Positions 9,064 through 32,000 of a stretch of 32,000 nt of DNA are shown in pieces. Origin of the DNA: Ktedonobacterales bacterium (GTDB lineage Bacteria; Chloroflexota; Ktedonobacteria; Ktedonobacterales; JADMIN01); assembly GCA_030167145.1 (NCBI GenBank), contig CP126532.1, forward strand, positions 1,080,001 through 1,112,000, written 5' to 3'. Below the pieces are notes generated by a model. It saw only the letters and a list, made by a program, of their open reading frames with translations. It made no database searches and was not told the origin of the DNA. Position 1 is the first letter of the stretch, and each line of letters begins with the position of its first letter. A program made the position numbers and the translations under genes.

Positions 9064-10086
9064 TCACAGGCGCAGCAGCGCCTTGATCGCGCGGCGTTCA
9101 TCCATCGCGCGGTAGCCCTCCGCCGCCTGTTCAAGTGGCAGCTCCAGGTCGAATACTTTGCCGGGATTAATCTGTTGGCTGTAGATCAGATCAATCAGCT
9201 TGGGCAAGAAGCGGCGGACCGGCGCCGGTCCGCCAAACAGGTGGACTTCCGCGAAGAACAACTCCTCGCCGGGCAGCTCTACCCCATGAGAGACCCCGAC
9301 GAAGCCGACATGCCCGCCGGGGCGAGTGGAGCGGATGGCCTGCAGCATGGACTCCTGAGTGCCAACGGCCTCGATGACCGAGTGTGCCCCGAGGCCGTCG
9401 GTCAGGTCCTTGATGCGCGCCACGCCCGCATCGCCGCGCTCGGTCACGATGTCGGTCGCGCCGAAGGCGCGGGCGAGCCGCTGCCGCGCCTCATGTCGGC
9501 TCATAGCGATGATGCGCTCGGCGCCTAGCTGCTTCGCGGCCAGTACGCCCAAAAGCCCTACCGCACCGTCGCCGACGACCCCGACTGTCTTGCCGGGGCC
9601 TACCGCGGCTGCGTCGGAGGCGAACCAGCCGGTGCCGAGCACGTCGGAGGCGGCGAGCAGGCTGGGGATCAGGTCGTCGGGCGGGAGATCCGGCGTAGCT
9701 ACCAGCGTGCCATCCGCGAGCGGGATGCGCGCGAACTGCGCCTGAGTGCCGATTGAGCCTATCGGCACTGCATGCACGCATCGGGACTGGTAGCCTGCCT
9801 GGCAGATGGGACATGTGTTGTCGGAGGCCCAGAACGAGCCGACGACGAACTGGCCGGACTTGATCTTCGTGACCGCACGGCCGACCTCCTCGACGATGCC
9901 GACGTACTCATGGCCCATCGGCGTTGGCCCGGTGACTGGCTCGAGGCCGCGGTAGGGCCACAGGTCGGACCCGCAGACGCAAGTGGCCGACAGCCGGATG
10001 ATAGCGTCGGTCGGTTCGATAATCGTTGGGTCGGGGCGCTGCTCGACGCGCACGTCGTACGGCCCGTACAAAATTGCTCCACGCAT
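9064..10086 (-). CDS. Zinc-dependent alcohol dehydrogenase family (MDR) oxidoreductase
   Basis: Zinc ligands are in ATCVCGSDLW ... GHEYVGIVEEVG and the structural-zinc cysteines in CPICQAGYQSRC. The NAD fold is GVVGDGAVGL. AAGGAGATATACC precedes the ATG at 10086. Confidence 0.85.
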   Translation of the reverse strand: MRGAILYGPYDVRVEQRPDPTIIEPTDAIIRLSATCVCGSDLWPYRGLEPVTGPTPMGHEYVGIVEEVGRAVTKIKSGQFVVGSFWASDNTCPICQAGYQSRCVHAVPIGSIGTQAQFARIPLADGTLVATPDLPPDDLIPSLLAASDVLGTGWFASDAAAVGPGKTVGVVGDGAVGLLGVLAAKQLGAERIIAMSRHEARQRLARAFGATDIVTERGDAGVARIKDLTDGLGAHSVIEAVGTQESMLQAIRSTRPGGHVGFVGVSHGVELPGEELFFAEVHLFGGPAPVRRFLPKLIDLIYSQQINPGKVFDLELPLEQAAEGYRAMDERRAIKALLRL

Positions 10087-23372: not shown

Positions 23373-25337
23373 GTGGATCAGAGCGACGAGCAGACCGCAG
23401 ACGTCACCACGCAAGACGAACAGCGGGTAGACGCAAACCCGGAGGCCGGGGCAAAGGCAGCCGATGCGGCGACAACCGACCAGGGCGAGAACACGTCGGA
23501 GACCGCTGGTGACGCGCCCAGCGCAGGGGCGGCTGATGGCGAGCCAGACGCGGGTGCGTCCGCGAATGGGACGACGCAGGAGCCTGAGGCCACGAGCAAA
23601 GGCACACCAGATGAGCATGCGCCGCTGACGCCGGGAACGCGGCTGGATTTCCTGGTGATTGATCGTCTGGTGAAGGATACGGCGGACGAGCGTGTGTATC
23701 TGGTGTACGAGGCGGGACGCGAGAAGCTTCTGGAAGATCGCATGCTCATCCATGAGGGCGAAGAGGGCGCGTTCAATGGCGTGGCGGAGATGATGAGTAG
23801 CAGTCTGCGTCATCCGCGGCTGCTGGCGCCACGTCTGATCCTCTCGCGAGAGGGCCATGACTATTTGGTGTTGGATGCGCTGACTGGGCCGAACGGCGAC
23901 TTGCTGCCCACGGCGCAGAAGAGTGGCACACGGCTGGACGTGGTGGATGCCTTGCGCGCTGGTATCGGTATTGGCGATGCGCTGAATTACCTGCATCGCA
24001 ATGATGTCGCTCATCTGCACGTTGCGCCCGATACGCTGATTGTAGTGAATGGACGCACGTACCTGACTGGGGTGGAGCAGGGGAGTTATCTTGCCAGGAA
24101 AGATGATCCCACGCCGCTCTATGCGCAGGACGCCAACAGTCTGGCGCGTGCGCTTGGCGCCTTGGCGGGGATCGCGGGCGATGAGGGCGAAGACACGGAG
24201 GACATGGCGCGCGAGAATCTACGCCGCATCGTCGCATATGGTGAGGCGGATGGATTCACCAGCCCAACGGAGGTGGTGACGGCCTGTGGGGTAGCCATCG
24301 AGAGCGCCGCACGGGCATTGCCGATTCCGCCCGCCGAGAACACCACAGAGCGAATTGCGCTGACCTACGCCACAGCGACAACGGTGGGTATGGTACGCTC
24401 GCAGAACCAGGATGCCTGCGCCGCAATGATCTTTGACGTATACGACGATCAAGCGGCAGGGGAGCCGCTGGCAGTGTTTTTGGTGGCAGATGGCATGGGC
24501 GGCGAAGCGCATGGTGAGGTTGCCAGCCGCATTGCCGCGCGCACGGTGCCCATCGAGTTGATGAGCGCACTGGCGCTGCCCCGGCTCAGCCGCGCGCTGC
24601 GGCCTGAGGTGGGGGTGCCTACCGTCGGCCAGGATTCGCCAGCAGATAAGGAGCGCGCAGAGACAGACGCTGGCAAGCCCGCTGAAGATGCAGTAGATGC
24701 GCAAGAAACGGCAAACGAGGAGTTGAGCCTGGCGCACGCGCTGGTACGCGCCTCTGAGGCGGCGAACGCGCGGATACGAGCGCTGGTAGCCGAGATTGGC
24801 CGTGCGTCGGGCACGACACTGACGGCGTTGGCGATGCACGGTACACAGGCTGCGCTGGCGCATGTGGGCGATAGTCGCGCGTATCTGCTGCGCAACAAGG
24901 TGCTGGTGGCGCTAACAGACGACCATTCGGTGCTGGCACGCCTGCAAATGCTCGACCATCCGCTGCTGAGCGACCCGGATGTGTTCATTCCGCGTAGCAT
25001 GCTCTATCGCTCGCTCGGTCAGGAGGATGAGATGCTGCCGGATTTGCTGGAGTTGCGGCTGGCGGCTGGCGATCGGCTGGTGCTATGCTCGGATGGGCTG
25101 TGGGACGAAGTGGATGCGGAGGCCACGGGCACGATTCTCGGCGAGGCTAGCGATCCGGCGTCATGCGCGCAGGCGCTGGTGCGAGCCGCCAATACCGCCG
25201 GTGGGCACGACAATAGTACGGCGGTGGCCGTCTTTGTTCACGCGGTGCCAGAGGACGAGGCAGCGAGCATGCCGCGTCCTGACGACGATGAGGATGCCAA
25301 CGCCTGGATGCCAGAACCCAGTGAGCCAGGGAAATAG
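23373..25337 (+). CDS. PP2C-family Ser/Thr phosphatase with an acidic N-terminal tail and a degenerate kinase-like middle domain
   Basis: PP2C motifs are RSQNQDA, FLVADGMGGEAHGEVAS, GTTLTA, VGDSRAYLL, LCSDGLWD and GGHDNSTAV. The region ~23640-24240 has YLHRNDVAHLHVAPDTLIV, resembling a kinase catalytic loop. No GxGxxG, VAIK Lys or DFG was recognised. GTG start. Confidence 0.8.
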   Translation: MDQSDEQTADVTTQDEQRVDANPEAGAKAADAATTDQGENTSETAGDAPSAGAADGEPDAGASANGTTQEPEATSKGTPDEHAPLTPGTRLDFLVIDRLVKDTADERVYLVYEAGREKLLEDRMLIHEGEEGAFNGVAEMMSSSLRHPRLLAPRLILSREGHDYLVLDALTGPNGDLLPTAQKSGTRLDVVDALRAGIGIGDALNYLHRNDVAHLHVAPDTLIVVNGRTYLTGVEQGSYLARKDDPTPLYAQDANSLARALGALAGIAGDEGEDTEDMARENLRRIVAYGEADGFTSPTEVVTACGVAIESAARALPIPPAENTTERIALTYATATTVGMVRSQNQDACAAMIFDVYDDQAAGEPLAVFLVADGMGGEAHGEVASRIAARTVPIELMSALALPRLSRALRPEVGVPTVGQDSPADKERAETDAGKPAEDAVDAQETANEELSLAHALVRASEAANARIRALVAEIGRASGTTLTALAMHGTQAALAHVGDSRAYLLRNKVLVALTDDHSVLARLQMLDHPLLSDPDVFIPRSMLYRSLGQEDEMLPDLLELRLAAGDRLVLCSDGLWDEVDAEATGTILGEASDPASCAQALVRAANTAGGHDNSTAVAVFVHAVPEDEAASMPRPDDDEDANAWMPEPSEPGK

Positions 25338-26891: not shown

Positions 26892-27005
26892 TCATACCGC
26901 AGAGCGCGAAAAACGTCAAGGACCCATCATGAAGTGGGCCGAATGTGACATGGTATGCGTCTTGCGGAATCACTGCCAGGCATGCACTTTGAAGGAGGCG
27001 CCGCA

Positions 27006-28223
27006 ATGTCACTTCAAGAGAACCCCAACAGCACGGGCATGGACCCGGTGGTGCTCTTCAATATTGCGCCAGGCGCGCTGGCGGTGGGCACGGATGGATT
27101 GCTGGGGACTATCGCGCAGATTGTGGTGGACCGTGCCACAGGTGGGCTGGATGCGCTGATTCTGCGGCGCGGTGACACGGGTACGGAGGTCGAGTTGCCC
27201 GCAACACATATCACACGTTCGACCGGCGATCAGGTATTTCTGGACATTGGCTTCGAAGATTTCACGTCCCATCCGCACCTTGCGATTCCGTATGATCCCA
27301 GCCGCTATGTGCCAGTCGAGCCAAGGCCAGCGAAACCACCGGAGCCGGAGCACAGCGCGGAACCTGCGCCGCCGACGGAGACCCGCACACCTTCTGACGC
27401 GCGTGCGCCGTTCATGCAAAGCAGCCCAACACCAGAAACCACTGGCACGCTGATCGGTGGGAAGCCGAGCACGGGTGGCTATGGCTCCGCATCCTCCGTA
27501 CCCGTGGTGGAAGAGTGGCGGGATGAACAGCCACAGCCGCCAGCAAACACAGGCGAATCGGCGCAGGAGCGCTCGGCGGAAGCTGAGGGCATGCGCGCGG
27601 TGTTTGCCGATGCGGCGAAGATGGCGTCACCGCCGAATCCGGACGCTTTTCCGGAGCTAGATGCCATGGCGGAAGCTGTGACTCAGGCGCAAGAGAAAGC
27701 GCCGCTGCCCGTAACGACGGAAGAAGCCGCCATACAAGAGGACCCCGATCCGTATCCCGAAATGGACCGGTCGCGCGACGTGTCCGATGTGACACAGACG
27801 GCGCTGCCCACCACGCCGGACGCGGCGACGGAAGTGGGTTCGCAGGAGGCGATGCAGGTCTCGGAACACATGATGCGTCCGGAGGAGATCGCCGAAACCA
27901 CACAAAACCCAGTGTCGCGGCCATCGCCGGATGAGATTCCGACACGCCCGCTGCGTGCCGTTGAGCGCATCCAAGAAGAGGATATGAAGCGGCCTGACCA
28001 GCCGCCTGGCACAGCAGGTACCATGAATTTATCGTGGCGACCGAGCGAATACCATGATATGACCGTCTCGCTGCAACCATCTGGGCTGATGAACGTGCTG
28101 ACGCTAGTGCTGGCGGGGGCGGGGTTCACGGCAGGCGTGCTGATCGGCGTCTTTACTTCGATGCGTCGCCGCCGCGAAGAGACATCAGTCCCAGCGCCAG
28201 AGCGGCAGCCAGCCATAGATTGA
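27006..28223 (+). CDS. PRC-barrel domain protein with a long acidic/Pro-rich linker and a C-terminal TM anchor
   Basis: AAGGAGG SD lies 8 nt before the ATG at 27006. The N-terminus VGTDGLLGTIAQIVVDRATGGLDALILRRGDTGTEVELPATHI is PRC-barrel-like. The C-terminus has LMNVLTLVLAGAGFTAGVLIGVF followed by RRRRE. Confidence 0.65.
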   Translation: MSLQENPNSTGMDPVVLFNIAPGALAVGTDGLLGTIAQIVVDRATGGLDALILRRGDTGTEVELPATHITRSTGDQVFLDIGFEDFTSHPHLAIPYDPSRYVPVEPRPAKPPEPEHSAEPAPPTETRTPSDARAPFMQSSPTPETTGTLIGGKPSTGGYGSASSVPVVEEWRDEQPQPPANTGESAQERSAEAEGMRAVFADAAKMASPPNPDAFPELDAMAEAVTQAQEKAPLPVTTEEAAIQEDPDPYPEMDRSRDVSDVTQTALPTTPDAATEVGSQEAMQVSEHMMRPEEIAETTQNPVSRPSPDEIPTRPLRAVERIQEEDMKRPDQPPGTAGTMNLSWRPSEYHDMTVSLQPSGLMNVLTLVLAGAGFTAGVLIGVFTSMRRRREETSVPAPERQPAID

Positions 28224-28685
28224 TATTGCCCGCTCGGTGCGGTGTCGTGGATATGTCACTATGCAAAGTAGGTTTGCATACGTGCGGATAGCATATGTGG
28301 GGCAATGCTTCGTAGGTGCGGGCTGTTAGATCACACATCATCTCGCCGCAAGGTGGGTGAGCTACAAGTCAACACTGGGATCGAAGCAGTCTATACACAG
28401 ACTTCCATACTAAAGGAAACTGTTTTTGACCGGCGAAGGATGTGTCGGCGGTCATCACTGGCAACAGGCCATCGCTCACACACAGCCGCGTGATCATCAG
28501 TTCGGCCCGATTCACCGCTATCCTCCGCGTCTGAAGTTTAGTGGTTCTGGGGACAAGCGGGGATGAACCTGGGCTGCTTACAAACACGGTACACTTCGAG
28601 ACAATCAGGTGGATAGCGGGATAGGGCAGGCGAGCTGAAATCGCGCGCTGCCTAGGCGTGACACGACCATGAGGAGGAGAGAATC

Positions 28686-31193
28686 ATGGCGATGCTCTTT
28701 ACGTTCCTGTATCGCAACCTCAAGGGCTATCGCCTGCTCGTGTTGCTCGCCGTCTTGGTCACTGTCACACAGGTGTTTGTCGCGATCAGTATGGCGTTTC
28801 CCCTAAAGTTTATCCCCAGCAAAGTCCAGAATCCCGGGAACGATCCTTCGTGCCTCTTCCCTTTCCTCAATCCCATTTTGGATAAGTTCGACACCCCACG
28901 GATCGCCCCCGAACTACAGCCGCTGGCTCCTGGCCAGCCACCGCAAGCTCCGGGACTGACGCAATGTCCATATAACCCAAGCCATCCCAGCCCGTACCTG
29001 ATGACCAGTCACCATACCGTCAATGGAGTGATCGTTTTCTCAGTCGTGATGCTGGTTATCCTTGGGCTGATCAATGCTGGCCTAATCTACTTAGACCTCT
29101 TCCTGGCGTCACACATTTCGCAGAATCTCAGCGCCAGGCTGCGAAATCGGCTCTTCGACCATCTCCAGCGCCTCTCGCTTGATTGGCACGGCAAACAGAA
29201 AAAGGGTGATCTGGTCAACCGGATCACAGGCAATGTCGCCGACATCGAGAAATTGGTGACAGACGGCATGGTTGACTTGTTGGCGGGCACGCTGACACTT
29301 GTCGGCGTGATCGTGGTGATGCTTGCCCTCAGCCCAACCTATACGCTGATCGCCGCAACCATCATTCCGGCGCTGTTCCTGATGACTTACACGTATACAC
29401 GCAACATTAAGGCAGCGACCAAGCGGGCGTCAAAGGCGACGGGACAGGTCTCAGATGTGGCGACTGAAGACATCAATGCGCTCACGGTCATCAAGGTCTT
29501 TACGCGCGAGGAACCAGAAAGCAATCGCTTTGGCGGATATGTCGAAACCACCCGTCGCTCAGGTCTGCGGGCAGGCAGATTGCAAGCGCAATTTACGCCA
29601 CTGGTGGGCTTCTTGGTTGCGCTGGGCACCGCAGCGGTCCTTGGGGCGGGTGGTTATTCTGCCGCCGGGAACAACTTTAACCTTGGCCTCGTTACCGTGC
29701 AGCCTCTCAGTATTGATATCGGGCTGCTAGTCCTGTTCATGACATTTCTGGCCCTGCTCTACCAGCCTATGCGTGACCTTTCAAAGCTGAGCACTCTGGC
29801 CGGAACAGCTTCCGCGGGCGTCGAACGCATTCAAGAGGTATTTGATCAGGCTCCCGAAATTCTGGAGAGCCAGACACCCTACCATGGCCCGACCAAACTG
29901 CGCGGTGAGGTCGTTTTCGACAATGTCTACTTTGGCTACACACCTGAACGGGCAGTACTCAAAGGGATCAGCATGCAAGTGCCTACTGGCAAACGGGTGG
30001 GGCTGGTGGGATTGTCCGGCGGCGGCAAGACCACGCTGGTGAAGTTAATCCCGCGTTTCTATGAAGCGCAACAAGGATCGGTACGTATAGACGGACTCGA
30101 TAATCGCCTCTATCCCCTCGCGGTGCTGCGGCGAAATATCAGTATGGTACTTCAGGAATCAGTACTCTTCGAGGGGAGCATTGCAGACAACATTTCCATC
30201 GGCAGACCAGATGCCACACCCGAAGAGGTGGTTGAGGCGGCGCGCAAAGCGAATATACATGAGGTAATCCTGCGGGATCTTGGTGGCTACGAGCGCCTGG
30301 TTACTGAACAAGGCAAAGACCTCTCTGGCGGTCAGCGCCAGCGCATCGCTATCGCCCGCGCGATTCTTCGCGACGCCCCAATCCTGATTCTTGATGAGCC
30401 GACGGCGGCGCTGGATGTTGAGGCCGAAACTGAAGTGATGCGCGCGCTCCACCAATTAGTGGAGGGACGTACGGTGATTATGATCTCTCACCGCCTGAGC
30501 ACACTGGGGAGTGTTGACGAGATCATCGTCCTTAAAGCCGGCCAGATTGCCGAACAGGGAACCTTTGCAGAATTGAAGGAGCGAGGCGGCGTCTTCGCCG
30601 CACTGCTTGAGGAACAGAATCGCTATAACCTCGAAAAGGTGGCGGAACAGAATCGCTATAACCTGCAAAAGGCTGGCAACGACTCCATTGTCCGTTCGGC
30701 CTTTGTGCCGCTGGGGGTGGATGACGACCACCTGTCTCGCCAGCAAGTTCCTCCTGCCACCGACCGGGTGAAAGGAGAGCGCGCGGCACAGCGCGCCGGA
30801 ACTCCGATAGGAATGGCACAGGCAGCGCCAGGAGATGGAAATCGGGGCCCGGCGGATCTTAGCGCTACTGTGATAGCAGTGCAGCGGCAGCAAGCGCCTC
30901 CAGCCGAGATCACCGTTGCGATGGATGGTCAGATACTCACCCGACATGCGCTGAACAAGTCCATCATGACGATTGGCCGGCTCGCGGCAAATGATATTAC
31001 CGTGCCATTGCCGGGTATCTCGCGCACGCACGCGAAGATCGTTGCCAGAAATGGCGCCTGGGTTATTGAGGATACCGAAAGTTTGAATGGGCTGATCTAC
31101 CACGGTGAGCGTGTTGATCGCCTCATCCTGAAGACTGGCGACCGGATCCTTTTAGCGGCAGGAGTGGTGCTGCACTACCAGACGGTATCTTAG
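28686..31193 (+). CDS. ABC exporter (fused TMD-NBD, MsbA-like type I fold) with a C-terminal FHA domain
   Basis: Walker A is GLSGGGKTT, signature LSGGQRQRIAIARA, Walker B ILILDEPTAALD and H-loop ISHRLST. The last 94 aa (30909-31190) carry the FHA signature IGR...ISRTHA...SLNG...GD.I. A ~90-aa loop lies between TM1 and TM2. GAGGAGGAG SD. Confidence 0.85.
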   Translation: MAMLFTFLYRNLKGYRLLVLLAVLVTVTQVFVAISMAFPLKFIPSKVQNPGNDPSCLFPFLNPILDKFDTPRIAPELQPLAPGQPPQAPGLTQCPYNPSHPSPYLMTSHHTVNGVIVFSVVMLVILGLINAGLIYLDLFLASHISQNLSARLRNRLFDHLQRLSLDWHGKQKKGDLVNRITGNVADIEKLVTDGMVDLLAGTLTLVGVIVVMLALSPTYTLIAATIIPALFLMTYTYTRNIKAATKRASKATGQVSDVATEDINALTVIKVFTREEPESNRFGGYVETTRRSGLRAGRLQAQFTPLVGFLVALGTAAVLGAGGYSAAGNNFNLGLVTVQPLSIDIGLLVLFMTFLALLYQPMRDLSKLSTLAGTASAGVERIQEVFDQAPEILESQTPYHGPTKLRGEVVFDNVYFGYTPERAVLKGISMQVPTGKRVGLVGLSGGGKTTLVKLIPRFYEAQQGSVRIDGLDNRLYPLAVLRRNISMVLQESVLFEGSIADNISIGRPDATPEEVVEAARKANIHEVILRDLGGYERLVTEQGKDLSGGQRQRIAIARAILRDAPILILDEPTAALDVEAETEVMRALHQLVEGRTVIMISHRLSTLGSVDEIIVLKAGQIAEQGTFAELKERGGVFAALLEEQNRYNLEKVAEQNRYNLQKAGNDSIVRSAFVPLGVDDDHLSRQQVPPATDRVKGERAAQRAGTPIGMAQAAPGDGNRGPADLSATVIAVQRQQAPPAEITVAMDGQILTRHALNKSIMTIGRLAANDITVPLPGISRTHAKIVARNGAWVIEDTESLNGLIYHGERVDRLILKTGDRILLAAGVVLHYQTVS
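30611..30676 (+). repeat. 33-bp in-frame tandem duplication (EQNRYNLEKVA / EQNRYNLQKAG) in the NBD-FHA linker
   Basis: The first 21 nt of each unit (ggaacagaatcgctataacct) are identical. The remaining 12 nt have diverged. Confidence 0.9.
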
Positions 31194-31217
31194 GGCGGTT
31201 GTGAAAAGGAGTAGGAG

Positions 31218-32000
31218 ATGGCGAAACCAGCCCCGATAGCGCCTAAAGGCCGAATTTCACCGCCGCCTGCTCGCGGAAAGCGAATCTCAGCAGGCCGCAT
31301 ATTCACCTGGATCTCAGGCATCGTCAGCTTCAGCCTAGTGCTGTATCTGTTCGGGGCGGTCGTACACCAGTTCGTCTTTCCGCCGCCAGCGCAGCGGCTG
31401 ATCATTGTCCAGGATGTTCGCCTTCCAAACGGCCTGGGCAAGAACGCGCAGGACGCAGCTTCACTGGCCCCTGGGATCGAAGACACATTGACCGACGGAT
31501 TCGATTTCCAGGCGTATGATGCCGCGACACACCGTCTGTTCATTGCCCATACCGGCCCCGATCCCGACATCATGAAGCAGCAGCACATTCCGTTCGATCC
31601 TCAGTACGACGGCAATGTAACGGTCTTTGACACTGCGCAAAATAAGGTGGTCGCGAGAATACCTGCCCCACAAGTAGCGGGGGTAATTGACGCGCCTGAT
31701 CTCGGCAAGGTCTTCGCGGCGGATGCAGAGGATAACATTATTTTTGACATCAACGTCAATACGATGCAAATCCAGGGGCAAATCCAGCTCCCTGATAACG
31801 ACGGCCCCGACGCCGTCGCGTATGACCCAGACGATCATCGCATCTTCGTTTCCGATCCCGGAACCCCGGCGGACTCCCTCGAATCTATGAACACTGATCC
31901 GAAAAATCAGGACGTAGCGGTGATTGACGCGGTGAACGATACACTGATCGGCCTAGTGAACGTTGGCTTGCTGCCCCTTCTGCCGGGGGAGAAGGCTCCG
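31218..32000 (+). CDS. Membrane-anchored YncE/YVTN-like beta-propeller protein (3' end outside the window)
   Basis: My own translation; the ORF is absent from the track because it has no stop. It reads MAKPAPIAPKGRISPPPARGKRISAGRIFTWISGIVSFSLVLYLFGAVV (TM) ... HRLFIAHTGPD ... VTVFDTAQNKVV ... KVFAADAEDNIIFDINV ... HRIFVSDPG ... VAVIDAVNDTLI. AAGGAG lies 6 nt before the ATG. The frame is open for all 261 codons to the window end. Confidence 0.7.
   Translation, partial: MAKPAPIAPKGRISPPPARGKRISAGRIFTWISGIVSFSLVLYLFGAVVHQFVFPPPAQRLIIVQDVRLPNGLGKNAQDAASLAPGIEDTLTDGFDFQAYDAATHRLFIAHTGPDPDIMKQQHIPFDPQYDGNVTVFDTAQNKVVARIPAPQVAGVIDAPDLGKVFAADAEDNIIFDINVNTMQIQGQIQLPDNDGPDAVAYDPDDHRIFVSDPGTPADSLESMNTDPKNQDVAVIDAVNDTLIGLVNVGLLPLLPGEKAP

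Follow-up and report, generated by a model that had tools for sequence, protein, structure and literature searches.

A gene of a Ktedonobacterales bacterium encodes an ABC exporter that ends in an FHA domain, which raises the question of what a phosphothreonine (pThr) reader does on such a pump and with which partners the pump works. FHA control of an ABC pump has, to our knowledge, been studied in essentially one protein, Rv1747. The gene lies in a stretch of 32,000 nucleotides that was analysed as a whole (the window), and its parts are as follows.

28686..31193, + strand: ABC-FHA gene, encoding an 835-aa type I ABC half-transporter with a C-terminal FHA domain
28806..29015, + strand: ECL1 insert (residues 41-110), a Pro-rich extracytoplasmic loop with C56 and C94, from hydropathy
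29016..29780, + strand: TM2-TM6 and intracellular coupling loops (residues 111-365), from Pfam ABC_membrane, hydropathy and AF2 helices
29883..30620, + strand: nucleotide-binding domain (NBD; residues 400-645), with Walker A, Q-loop, LSGGQ, Walker B plus catalytic Glu, and H-loop
30611..30676, + strand: 33-bp in-frame tandem duplication (EQNRYNLEKVA / EQNRYNLQKAG) at the NBD-linker junction
30633..30902, + strand: disordered Ala/Gln/Pro-rich linker (residues 650-739), AF2 pLDDT about 28-31
30903..31190, + strand: FHA domain (residues 740-835), from Pfam, residue invariance, AF2 and the closest solved domain, 6cah

The three-part architecture proposed in the first-pass annotation (a six-TM exporter domain, a canonical NBD and a C-terminal FHA domain) is borne out by Pfam and by motifs. 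Positions 28686-31193 form one uninterrupted 835-aa frame, in which all three profiles score above cut-off in the order ABC_membrane (PF00664; residues 117-338, 145 bits, cut-off 28), ABC_tran (residues 425-574, 108 bits) and FHA (PF00498; residues 762-823, 53.9 bits, cut-off 20.7; 59.1 bits in the genome scan). Hydropathy gives six hydrophobic segments, with TM1 at ~17-40 and TM2 at ~111-140. The NBD motifs GLSGGGKTT, Q490, LSGGQ, ILILDEP and H602 are all present and invariant in 44 relatives, and by these intact motifs the pump is predicted to be a catalytically competent ABCB-type half-transporter. Its best solved relatives by sequence matches are ABCB1, TM287/288, TmrAB, Sav1866 and MsbA; full-length ABCB proteins of 1200 aa dominate the representative search, of which only the first few matches are informative. 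The pump stays below the NCBIfam equivalog cut-offs for MsbA (TIGR02203, 397.8 vs 602) and the CphA-associated ABC protein (NF052233, 403.3 vs 880), as it does for all MsbA-like and HlyB-like NCBIfam models. It shares the six-TM type I domain and the canonical NBD with MsbA, Sav1866, TM287/288 and TmrAB, but these have neither the 70-aa Cys-pair ECL1 insert nor a propeller partner, and the solved half-transporters are without the FHA tail, since none aligns past about residue 660 of the pump. A profile scan found only one frame of ~840 aa with an FHA match in this genome, and the pump therefore most likely works as a homodimer here. The AF2 model of the monomer is poor (pTM 0.42), and a reading of FHA docking from it was dropped.

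A fusion of this kind could in principle be an artefact of assembly or gene calling, with an ABC gene and an independent FHA gene wrongly run together, and an error near 30600-30900 joining two ORFs had been considered at the outset. The probability of this is practically nil. The frame is single and the genome is one contig, and all but one of the 120 best clusters of homologues (62-95% identity, 812-882 aa) have the same three domains. The architecture recurs in hundreds of independent clusters, whose sources are NCBI, JGI, ENA and Logan assemblies and include a cultured organism, Ktedonosporobacter rubrisoli.

The C-terminal domain is predicted to be a phosphothreonine-reader FHA with an intact pocket. 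The earlier identification of a complete domain from the motifs IGR, SRTHA and NG agrees with the HMM score, well above threshold, and with the pThr-pocket residues, of which G764, R765, S779, R780, H782 and G802 are found in 44/44 relatives and N801 in 43/44. The FHA is a confident beta-sandwich in the AF2 model, and its closest solved counterparts are Rv1747 FHA-1 (6cah) foremost, and also Rv1747 FHA-2 (6ccd), GarA and EmbR. These data make it highly improbable that the domain serves structure or oligomerisation independently of phosphorylation, as FHA-like domains do in YscD or EssC, and that the pump is outside kinase control. Such a role would fit the weak overlap of Yop-YscD_cpl with the FHA (29.4 bits, below the cut-off of 33.2), and neither a cognate kinase nor a pThr site was identified, but the true FHA model is far over its cut-off, R765, S779, R780, H782 and N801 are kept as given above, and the closest solved domains (Rv1747, GarA, EmbR) are phospho-dependent. 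Phospho-dependent regulation of the pump through its FHA domain is what the pocket would suggest.

The tether that carries the FHA is ~85 aa long, with an AF2 pLDDT of ~30 across residues 650-734. Its variable core (residues 676-739) has a conservation of 0.41, a length of 50-85 aa and a Pro content of 22% among 44 relatives. No linker Thr is conserved: no column exceeds 30% Thr, and 7 of the 44 linkers are devoid of Thr. No conserved Thr was found in the cytoplasmic tail of the neighbouring propeller protein either, and self-binding of the FHA to a linker pThr, as in Rv1747, or to the propeller tail was rejected for lack of a conserved Thr in both.

In Mycobacterium tuberculosis, the FHA-domain ABC exporter Rv1747 has PknF as its cognate Hanks kinase (PMC3138270, PMC8339232), which regulates it positively via its FHA domains (PMC3138270). 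The pump described here is similar in being an ABC exporter polypeptide with an FHA domain on a disordered tether and an intact pThr pocket; in relatives of family f4, moreover, a kinase-fold gene (APH) is located directly upstream, in the place of pknF in M. tuberculosis. The topology differs, as the first-pass annotation had proposed: Rv1747 has two N-terminal FHA domains, the NBD and then an ABC-2/ABCG-type membrane domain, whereas the Pfam order here is an ABCB-like domain, the NBD and one C-terminal FHA. Moreover, pT152 and pT210 of the Rv1747 linker have no conserved counterpart Thr, the operon of Rv1747 includes a Hanks kinase and that of the pump does not, and the ECL1 insert and the dedicated propeller partner are additional features of the present system. 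Judged from fold class and domain order, the pump appears to be analogous to Rv1747 and outside that family, which would make it a second, independent coupling of an ABC exporter with a phosphothreonine reader and a natural point of comparison for the regulation of transporters by tethered FHA domains. Mycobacteria also have the FhaA-MviN(MurJ)-PknB system, in which an FHA domain reads pThr and controls the flippase of lipid-linked precursors of the cell envelope, likewise in bacteria of mycelial or Gram-positive-like type. There, FhaA is a separate protein and the flippase is a MOP-family member with a pseudokinase domain, whereas the present FHA domain is part of the ABC polypeptide itself.

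The surroundings of the gene were searched for a source of the phosphothreonine and for other control elements, including the region directly upstream.

28224..28685, + strand: upstream intergenic region (462 bp), with a ribosome-binding site, AGGAGGAG, just 5´ of the ATG

None of the 30 Pkinase matches in the genome falls in the window, in agreement with the initial reading, and the nearest is ~21 kb downstream; a kinase is found next to the pump neither here nor consistently in the loci of relatives. A PP2C gene had been noted 3.3 kb upstream. Its position stands (23373-25337, 3.35 kb from the pump), but a link to the pump does not: this PP2C/pseudokinase gene is syntenic in 0/7 loci of relatives and was rejected as the cognate regulator. 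The 462-bp region contains no credible ORF and one weak promoter-like site. It gives no Rfam match at E<=1, and a riboswitch or other known RNA was ruled out on this ground. A conserved small upstream ORF was also considered; an 83-aa ORF precedes the pump in the type A relatives L003 and L005 and is missing here.

On the other side of the pump, the next gene extends beyond the window.

31218..32000, + strand: 5´ part of the propeller gene, encoding a 463-aa protein; the gene ends ~609 nt past the window (L001:5218-6609)

The membrane-anchored beta-propeller announced in the first-pass annotation could be confirmed. The 463-aa protein is N-in, with one N-terminal TM helix (25-53) followed by a 7-bladed propeller of the YncE/YVTN type; the model has a pLDDT of 79.5, and the best Foldseek match is YncE (E=7e-16, target-normalised TM-score 0.79). 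Sequence models do not assign it to a family: the 261-aa part inside the window scores 16.2 bits vs 400 with NF052280 (7_blade_YncE) and a marginal 29 vs 27.85 with the YVTN repeat TIGR02276, where no single stretch passes, and no Pfam family exceeds its cut-off on the propeller. It has the 7-bladed fold of E. coli YncE and archaeal YVTN propellers (3vgz, 7seu, 1l0q), at ~15% identity, but is set apart by its N-terminal TM anchor, invariant CSTPHG and ACTD motifs, and a genetic tie to an ABC pump. Its C330 and C349 are a candidate disulfide pair. Only 24 nt, without a terminator-like site, separate the pump gene from the propeller start at 31218, and co-transcription of the two genes, as already suspected, is probable. 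The pairing is conserved. In Ktedonobacteria the pump is almost always encoded beside a membrane-anchored propeller, in three gene orders, and 63/69 propeller copies are within 5 kb of a pump; in 46/69 the propeller is <=300 nt from the FHA end of the pump gene (27 co-directional, 19 convergent), and in ~10 further cases it is directly upstream. From the side of the propeller, 54 of 56 genomes with this gene also have the pump. Natural pairs of the two proteins number ~270.

The loop between TM1 and TM2 offers a possible counterpart for the propeller on the outer face. By hydropathy it comprises ~70 aa, shorter than the ~90 residues first estimated, with 16 Pro and the two expected Cys, C56 and C94, the sole Cys of the whole pump. 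The loop is nearly as conserved as the TM core (0.81 vs 0.82), the Cys are kept in 42/42 long-loop sequences, and they probably form a disulfide that braces it. The insert tracks the propeller gene: it is present in all propeller-linked pumps and missing from short-loop paralogues. The propeller adjoins 20 of 24 insert-bearing pumps and lies within 3.3 kb in 2 more, while 0/6 short-loop, Cys-free pumps have a propeller of their own. The earlier idea that the loop is a substrate- or partner-binding ectodomain gains support, because the Cys-pair insert is limited to pumps with a propeller neighbour; from this co-occurrence of genes, we infer that ECL1 may physically contact the propeller. The partnership of an outer loop with a probable disulfide and a dedicated propeller is testable.

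Taken together, we favour with moderate confidence an exporter or flippase under pThr regulation, with the propeller as its partner on the outer face of the membrane. The pump would probably export or flip a putative envelope or secreted compound. Outside, the 70-aa ECL1 insert may work with the propeller as a docking site or as a point of substrate hand-over. On the cytoplasmic face, the FHA of each subunit would hang on its ~85-aa disordered tether and bind pThr on another protein, either one of the ~30 Hanks kinases or a kinase substrate, and through this binding Ser/Thr kinases could control the transport activity of the pump, its assembly or its location.

The propeller could also be read in the opposite sense, as capturing an external ligand and passing it to an importer with an exporter fold, for instance IrtAB, YbtPQ or Rv1819c. 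The structural matches include ligand-binding propellers of the BtuG type (target-normalised TM-score 0.65-0.71), and BtuG is known to capture cobalamin; the propeller is, furthermore, extracytoplasmic and tied to the outer loop of the pump. The best fold matches are, however, YncE and YVTN, an importer-specific feature was not found, and the biosynthetic-type genes (RimK, APH) that are co-operonic in relatives suit export better. We consider import very unlikely. An outward binding module and an inward signalling module in one design would also be compatible with a sensor, in which the propeller and ECL1 pick up a cue from the envelope or from outside and the FHA is exposed by the ATPase cycle to recruit proteins of a kinase pathway, much as BceAB-type transporters sense flux. 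Genes for signalling often lie nearby but vary from locus to locus: two-component systems, Pkinase and, in this genome, PP2C. These neighbours are not conserved, and the catalytic motifs are without exception canonical, like those of working transporters, which leaves the sensor with a very small probability.

In relatives, the pump often has further company. A small operon of two RimK-type ligases and an APH-fold kinase (RimK-RimK-APH) usually abuts the pump in family f4; loci of types A and B have the RimK pair and APH next to the pump, those of type D a RimK gene. In 31/56 cases APH directly precedes an ABC-FHA gene on the same strand, abutting its 5´ end, and 54/56 genomes with APH have the pump. 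In the cultured Ktedonosporobacter rubrisoli, APH occurs along with the ABC-FHA gene and a propeller gene in convergent orientation. These genes suggest a cargo or adaptor receptor: RimK and APH would make a phosphorylated peptide-like product, and the FHA would pick it out for export by its phospho-group, in the way that PCAT exporters recognise leader peptides with their C39 domain. The absence of a conserved pThr site in the pump and in the propeller tail would agree with such a role, as would the sole family match of the APH protein, the peptide Ser/Thr kinase LxmK. This match reaches just 30 bits vs a cut-off of 315, however, and the APH protein has no solved relative. A gene for a precursor peptide was not found, and a domain that hangs on an 85-aa tether at the far end of the NBD is oddly placed for cargo loading. 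Moreover, the genome studied here, like the rest of family f1, retains pump and propeller but has neither APH nor an orthologous RimK. A cargo receptor is thus unlikely. Equally doubtful is a wider scheme in which pump, propeller and, in relatives, RimK-RimK-APH form one undescribed pathway, with a phosphorylated peptide-like product that the ATP-grasp ligases and the APH-fold kinase build, that the FHA selects, directly or on a carrier, by its pThr and that ECL1 hands to the propeller. Export would then depend on a phospho-tag, and the present genome would have a stripped-down and possibly horizontally acquired pair.

Orthologues of the type B cluster were sought in this genome and rejected: APH is missing, the RimK matches are 30-34% identical, and a lone GT4 (MraY-like) gene is 3 Mb off. 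The murF/mraY-like adjacency in type B is probably incidental, because a 259-nt gap precedes the operon there and the GT4 gene is 3 Mb away here. This genome carries the reduced form, pump and propeller only. In a comparison with the congener G055, homology resumes ~140 nt past the propeller stop; a clean empty site was not seen in G055, whose second flank falls on a different contig and whose neighbouring gene shows no relationship.

All named clusters with the ABC-FHA architecture are from Ktedonobacteria, and none was found in ~355 genomes of other Chloroflexota. A contig scan for a census across phyla listed at least two members of the family. The first-pass annotation had asked whether this domain order is common and already characterised, and the answer is divided. 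It is not rare, being common and diversified in Ktedonobacteria with one or two FHA domains and in homodimer and tandem-pair forms, and it already appears in JGI automatic annotation; on the other hand, no literature characterising it was found. Pump and propeller are an uncharacterised, lineage-specific system, probably for export. ABC-FHA pumps have expanded into a large family in these mycelial, kinase-rich bacteria, and they provide an entry point to the envelope and secretion biology of a poorly studied phylum. The 33-bp duplication at the NBD-linker junction is likewise present in P0001, P0003, P0007, P0009, P0012, P0033 and others and is, since relatives share it, inherited and not private to this genome.

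The window's pump gene is followed directly by the gene of its partner:

28686-31193, + strand: ABC-FHA pump gene, a single open reading frame of 835 aa, ATG start preceded by AGGAGGAG
From 31218: partner gene, 463 aa, starting 24 nt after the pump stop, with no terminator-like site found between them

The three-part architecture described in the first-pass annotation holds, all three Pfam matches falling in one frame: ABC_membrane (residues 117–338, 145 bits), ABC_tran (residues 425–574, 108 bits) and, at the C-terminus, FHA (residues 762–823, 53.9 bits, the cut-off being 20.7). The nucleotide-binding domain (NBD) has canonical motifs (Walker A GLSGGGKTT, LSGGQ, Walker B with the catalytic Glu in ILILDEP, and the H-loop His), and the protein behaves as a type I exporter in every sequence test. 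No curated equivalog family was reached, all NCBIfam equivalog models scoring below their cut-offs. Hydropathy gives six TM segments; because the gap between TM1 and TM2 runs from near residue 40 to near 111, the first extracytoplasmic loop (ECL1) is about 70 aa long and not about 90 as first estimated. It contains 16 Pro and the two Cys previously noted. Frame, domains, motifs, the 24-nt gap and the absence of a Ser/Thr kinase from the window (no Pkinase match anywhere in it) were all verified, so the earlier description of the pump was correct except for loop length.

That the fusion is an artefact of two wrongly joined frames, as the same annotation had allowed, is scarcely conceivable and can be set aside: the genome is one 5.07-Mb contig, and 119 of the 120 best homologous clusters share all three domains (62–95% identity, 812–882 aa). 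A 33-bp in-frame duplication (EQNRYNLEKVA / EQNRYNLQKAG) does lie at the NBD-linker junction (window 30611-30676); being common to many homologues at 63–95% identity (including P0001, P0003, P0007, P0009, P0012 and P0033), it is inherited rather than a recent private event. The named clusters among the 120 are from Ktedonobacteraceae, Ktedonobacterales or Chloroflexota. The last 197 aa of the pump (NBD end, linker and FHA), used as a query, were found in open frames of about 800–880 aa in at least roughly 70 of the 169 genomes of the class, mostly in family f4 and with most genomes surveyed being incomplete MAGs. Among the matches listed, the tail appeared in only five of the 44 further genomes in f1, the family of the window genome, and in neither of two same-genus genomes (both only 84–88% complete); 401 evenly sampled Chloroflexota genomes gave no match outside families f1–f4. 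In clusters at 43–49% identity the outer loop is short and the C-terminus bears two FHA domains. A search seeded with the tail of one of these returned 489 proteins; in the best 120, all but a few partial fragments unite ABC_membrane, ABC_tran and FHA, and the taxon-named ones are all Ktedonobacteraceae, including the cultured Ktedonosporobacter rubrisoli. The suspicion that this domain order might be common and already characterised is therefore half right: it is common in Ktedonobacteria, and the FHA fusion is already named as such in JGI automatic annotation, but the literature searched yielded only work on Rv1747 and no paper on a C-terminal FHA behind ABC_membrane-ABC_tran. Two pump-core relatives at 51–58% identity, P0245 (1032 aa) and P0246 (916 aa), have long C-terminal extensions in which neither FHA nor another Pfam domain was found, indicating a different tail module.

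Conservation, taken as the majority-residue fraction per column across 44 relatives, is 0.86 in the NBD, 0.82 in TM2–TM6, 0.75 in the FHA domain and 0.41 in the linker; ECL1 reaches 0.81 among long-loop sequences only, i.e. those with the ECL1 insert and its Cys pair. C56 and C94 are the sole cysteines of the entire pump, and all 42 long-loop sequences keep both, suggesting an extracytoplasmic disulfide between them. The variable linker core (residues 676–739 in the pump) is 50–85 aa and Pro/Gln-rich across the family, and the whole tether (residues 650–734) is predicted to be disordered (pLDDT ~30) in an AF2 monomer that is weak (pLDDT 63, pTM 0.42) and was used for per-region confidence only. 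No conserved Thr was found in the linker: Thr is missing altogether from seven of 44 linkers and makes up at most 30% of any column. In the FHA domain, G764, R765, S779, R780, H782 and G802 are invariant in 44 of 44 sequences and N801 is present in 43. Beside these residues, a phospho-independent mode of action for the domain appears quite improbable. The nearest solved FHA domains are Rv1747 FHA-1 (6cah, E = 3e-8), Slr1951, Rv1747 FHA-2, GarA and EmbR; the nearest solved whole proteins (ABCB1, TM287/288, TmrAB, Sav1866 and MsbA) include none that aligns beyond about residue 660.

The partner consists of a basic N-terminal tail, a single TM helix (residues 25–53) and a seven-bladed propeller (AF2 pLDDT 79.5, pTM 0.78). 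Since the basic tail precedes the helix, the propeller would be located outside the cytoplasm. Its best fold matches are E. coli YncE, which it resembles in fold alone (target-normalised TM-score 0.79), an archaeal YVTN S-layer propeller, hydrazine synthase beta and BtuG-type lipoproteins. That the pump is an importer of exporter fold, for which the propeller captures the ligand, is in our judgement very unlikely. The partner family is small and lineage-restricted (273 homologues, annotated as hypothetical or YncE-like), with invariant CSTPHG and ACTD motifs and no Pfam domain found. The pairing was followed in 69 near-full-length propeller matches from 56 genomes, adjacency counts being lower bounds. 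In at least 46 of them, no more than 300 nt separate the propeller gene from the FHA end of a pump gene, the two running in the same direction in 27 and converging in 19; at least about ten more are on the pump's strand and 5´ of it, spaced as expected for direct neighbours; and at least 63 in all are within 5 kb, confirming the synteny that had been proposed for checking; the pump is present in at least 54 of the 56 genomes. The persistence of the pairing through three gene orders argues for functional coupling of pump and propeller.

The ECL1 insert tracks with the propeller. In 24 long-loop pumps examined, the propeller is adjacent in 20 and within 3.3 kb in two; of the remaining two, one is close to the end of a contig and the other belongs to a genome (G108) without a detectable propeller. 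None of six pumps with a Cys-free loop of 38–40 aa has a propeller of its own: four are from genomes in which the propeller search found none, and two are upstream members of tandem pairs whose downstream partner bears the insert. This co-occurrence, which is correlative, is the main support for ECL1 as a docking or hand-over site for the propeller, and lends weight to the earlier suggestion of a partner-binding ectodomain.

Gene neighbourhoods in relatives are of several types:

Type A (this window and loci L003, L005, L110-L112): pump then propeller, co-directional, 24–27 nt apart
Type B (L002, L004): tight operon of RimK, RimK, APH, short-loop ABC-FHA and long-loop ABC-FHA; convergent propeller
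Type D (L089-L092, in G080, G096, G082 and G077): pump with Walker A GYSGSGKT and signature FSAGQ, then propeller

The tandem ABC-FHA genes of type B (L002:7501-12517, L004:7430-12487) encode an upstream subunit of about 800 aa without the insert or either Cys and a downstream one of about 830–840 aa with both; FHA is kept in each, and the two likely form a heterodimer. Type D pumps, whose start is overlapped by an upstream RimK gene in L090 and L091, keep insert and FHA domain despite the degenerate signature and could be an asymmetric or heterodimeric variant. In L003 and L005, a conserved acidic 83-aa ORF without a Pfam domain (9709-9960 in both) lies 40 nt 5´ of the pump; it is absent from the window.

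The RimK-RimK-APH operon raises the alternative that FHA is a receptor for phosphorylated cargo made by these enzymes. At least 31 of 56 full-length APH genes directly adjoin a co-directional pump gene at its 5´ end, and at least 54 of 56 APH genomes have the pump. In L110, an 80%-identical relative, 19 nt separate the operon end from the propeller stop; in L112 the operon is 2.6 kb off, with a Hanks kinase in between. The ATP-grasp proteins are RimK/LysX-like, and the sole family match of APH, for which no solved relative was found, is the lanthipeptide peptide kinase LxmK, at a weak 30 bits against a cut-off of 315. APH occurs in 59 of 112 f4 genomes versus none of 44 in f1. It was not found in the window's genome, where RimK paralogues are only 30–34% identical, so this genome carries a reduced form of pump and propeller. 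We consider the cargo receptor unlikely.

The reading towards which we lean, a little beyond even chances, is a homodimeric ABCB-type pump, predicted to be catalytically active, that would export or flip an envelope or secreted compound. Outside, the disulfide-braced insert would cooperate with the propeller; inside, the tethered FHA domains would dock on pThr of a second protein: one of the roughly 30 Hanks kinases, or a substrate of such a kinase. That the pump with its tethered FHA serves instead as a sensor is highly improbable. Rv1747 likewise is an ABC exporter with tethered FHA, and its FHA domains are among the nearest solved relatives of the pump's own. The pump nevertheless differs from it in every architectural respect (domain order, membrane-domain class, operonic Hanks kinase and linker pThr sites), and the distinct topology noted at first reading extends to the membrane-domain class. 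This abundant, lineage-specific pump family, as yet uncharacterised, has a dedicated partner and, in many cases, a small biosynthetic operon. It should interest those who work on ABC transport or on Ser/Thr signalling in bacteria; the evidence so far does not indicate a new principle.

Two genes lie upstream of the pump in the window:

23373-25337: PP2C gene, 654 aa, C-terminal PP2C domain
26955-28223: 422-aa protein whose long central part is acidic and rich in Pro and Glu, with one TM helix at the C-terminus

At its N-terminus the first weakly resembles a kinase (PK_Tyr_Ser-Thr, 16.9 bits, under the cut-off), which is suggestive of a pseudokinase-PP2C fusion, and it shows no synteny with the pump among the relatives' loci examined. 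The second adjoins the pump's upstream intergenic region, has no Pfam match and is not kept beside the pump in relatives. About 15–20 kb past the window end (G000:C1:1127064-1131895) are two RimK-like ATP-grasp matches, 30–32% identical to type B RimK, one with in-frame stops. The pump-propeller pair itself has a G+C of 0.545–0.59 against 0.60–0.64 in its flanks (window 28001-32000, L001:2401-6600). It was not found in the same-genus genomes G055 and G056, and DNA homology to G055 restarts about 140 nt past the propeller stop. This genome's copies of the two genes are nearer to those of f4/f2 (propeller 68–72% identical) than to those of its own family, f1 (46–50%), and the pair may have been acquired horizontally.
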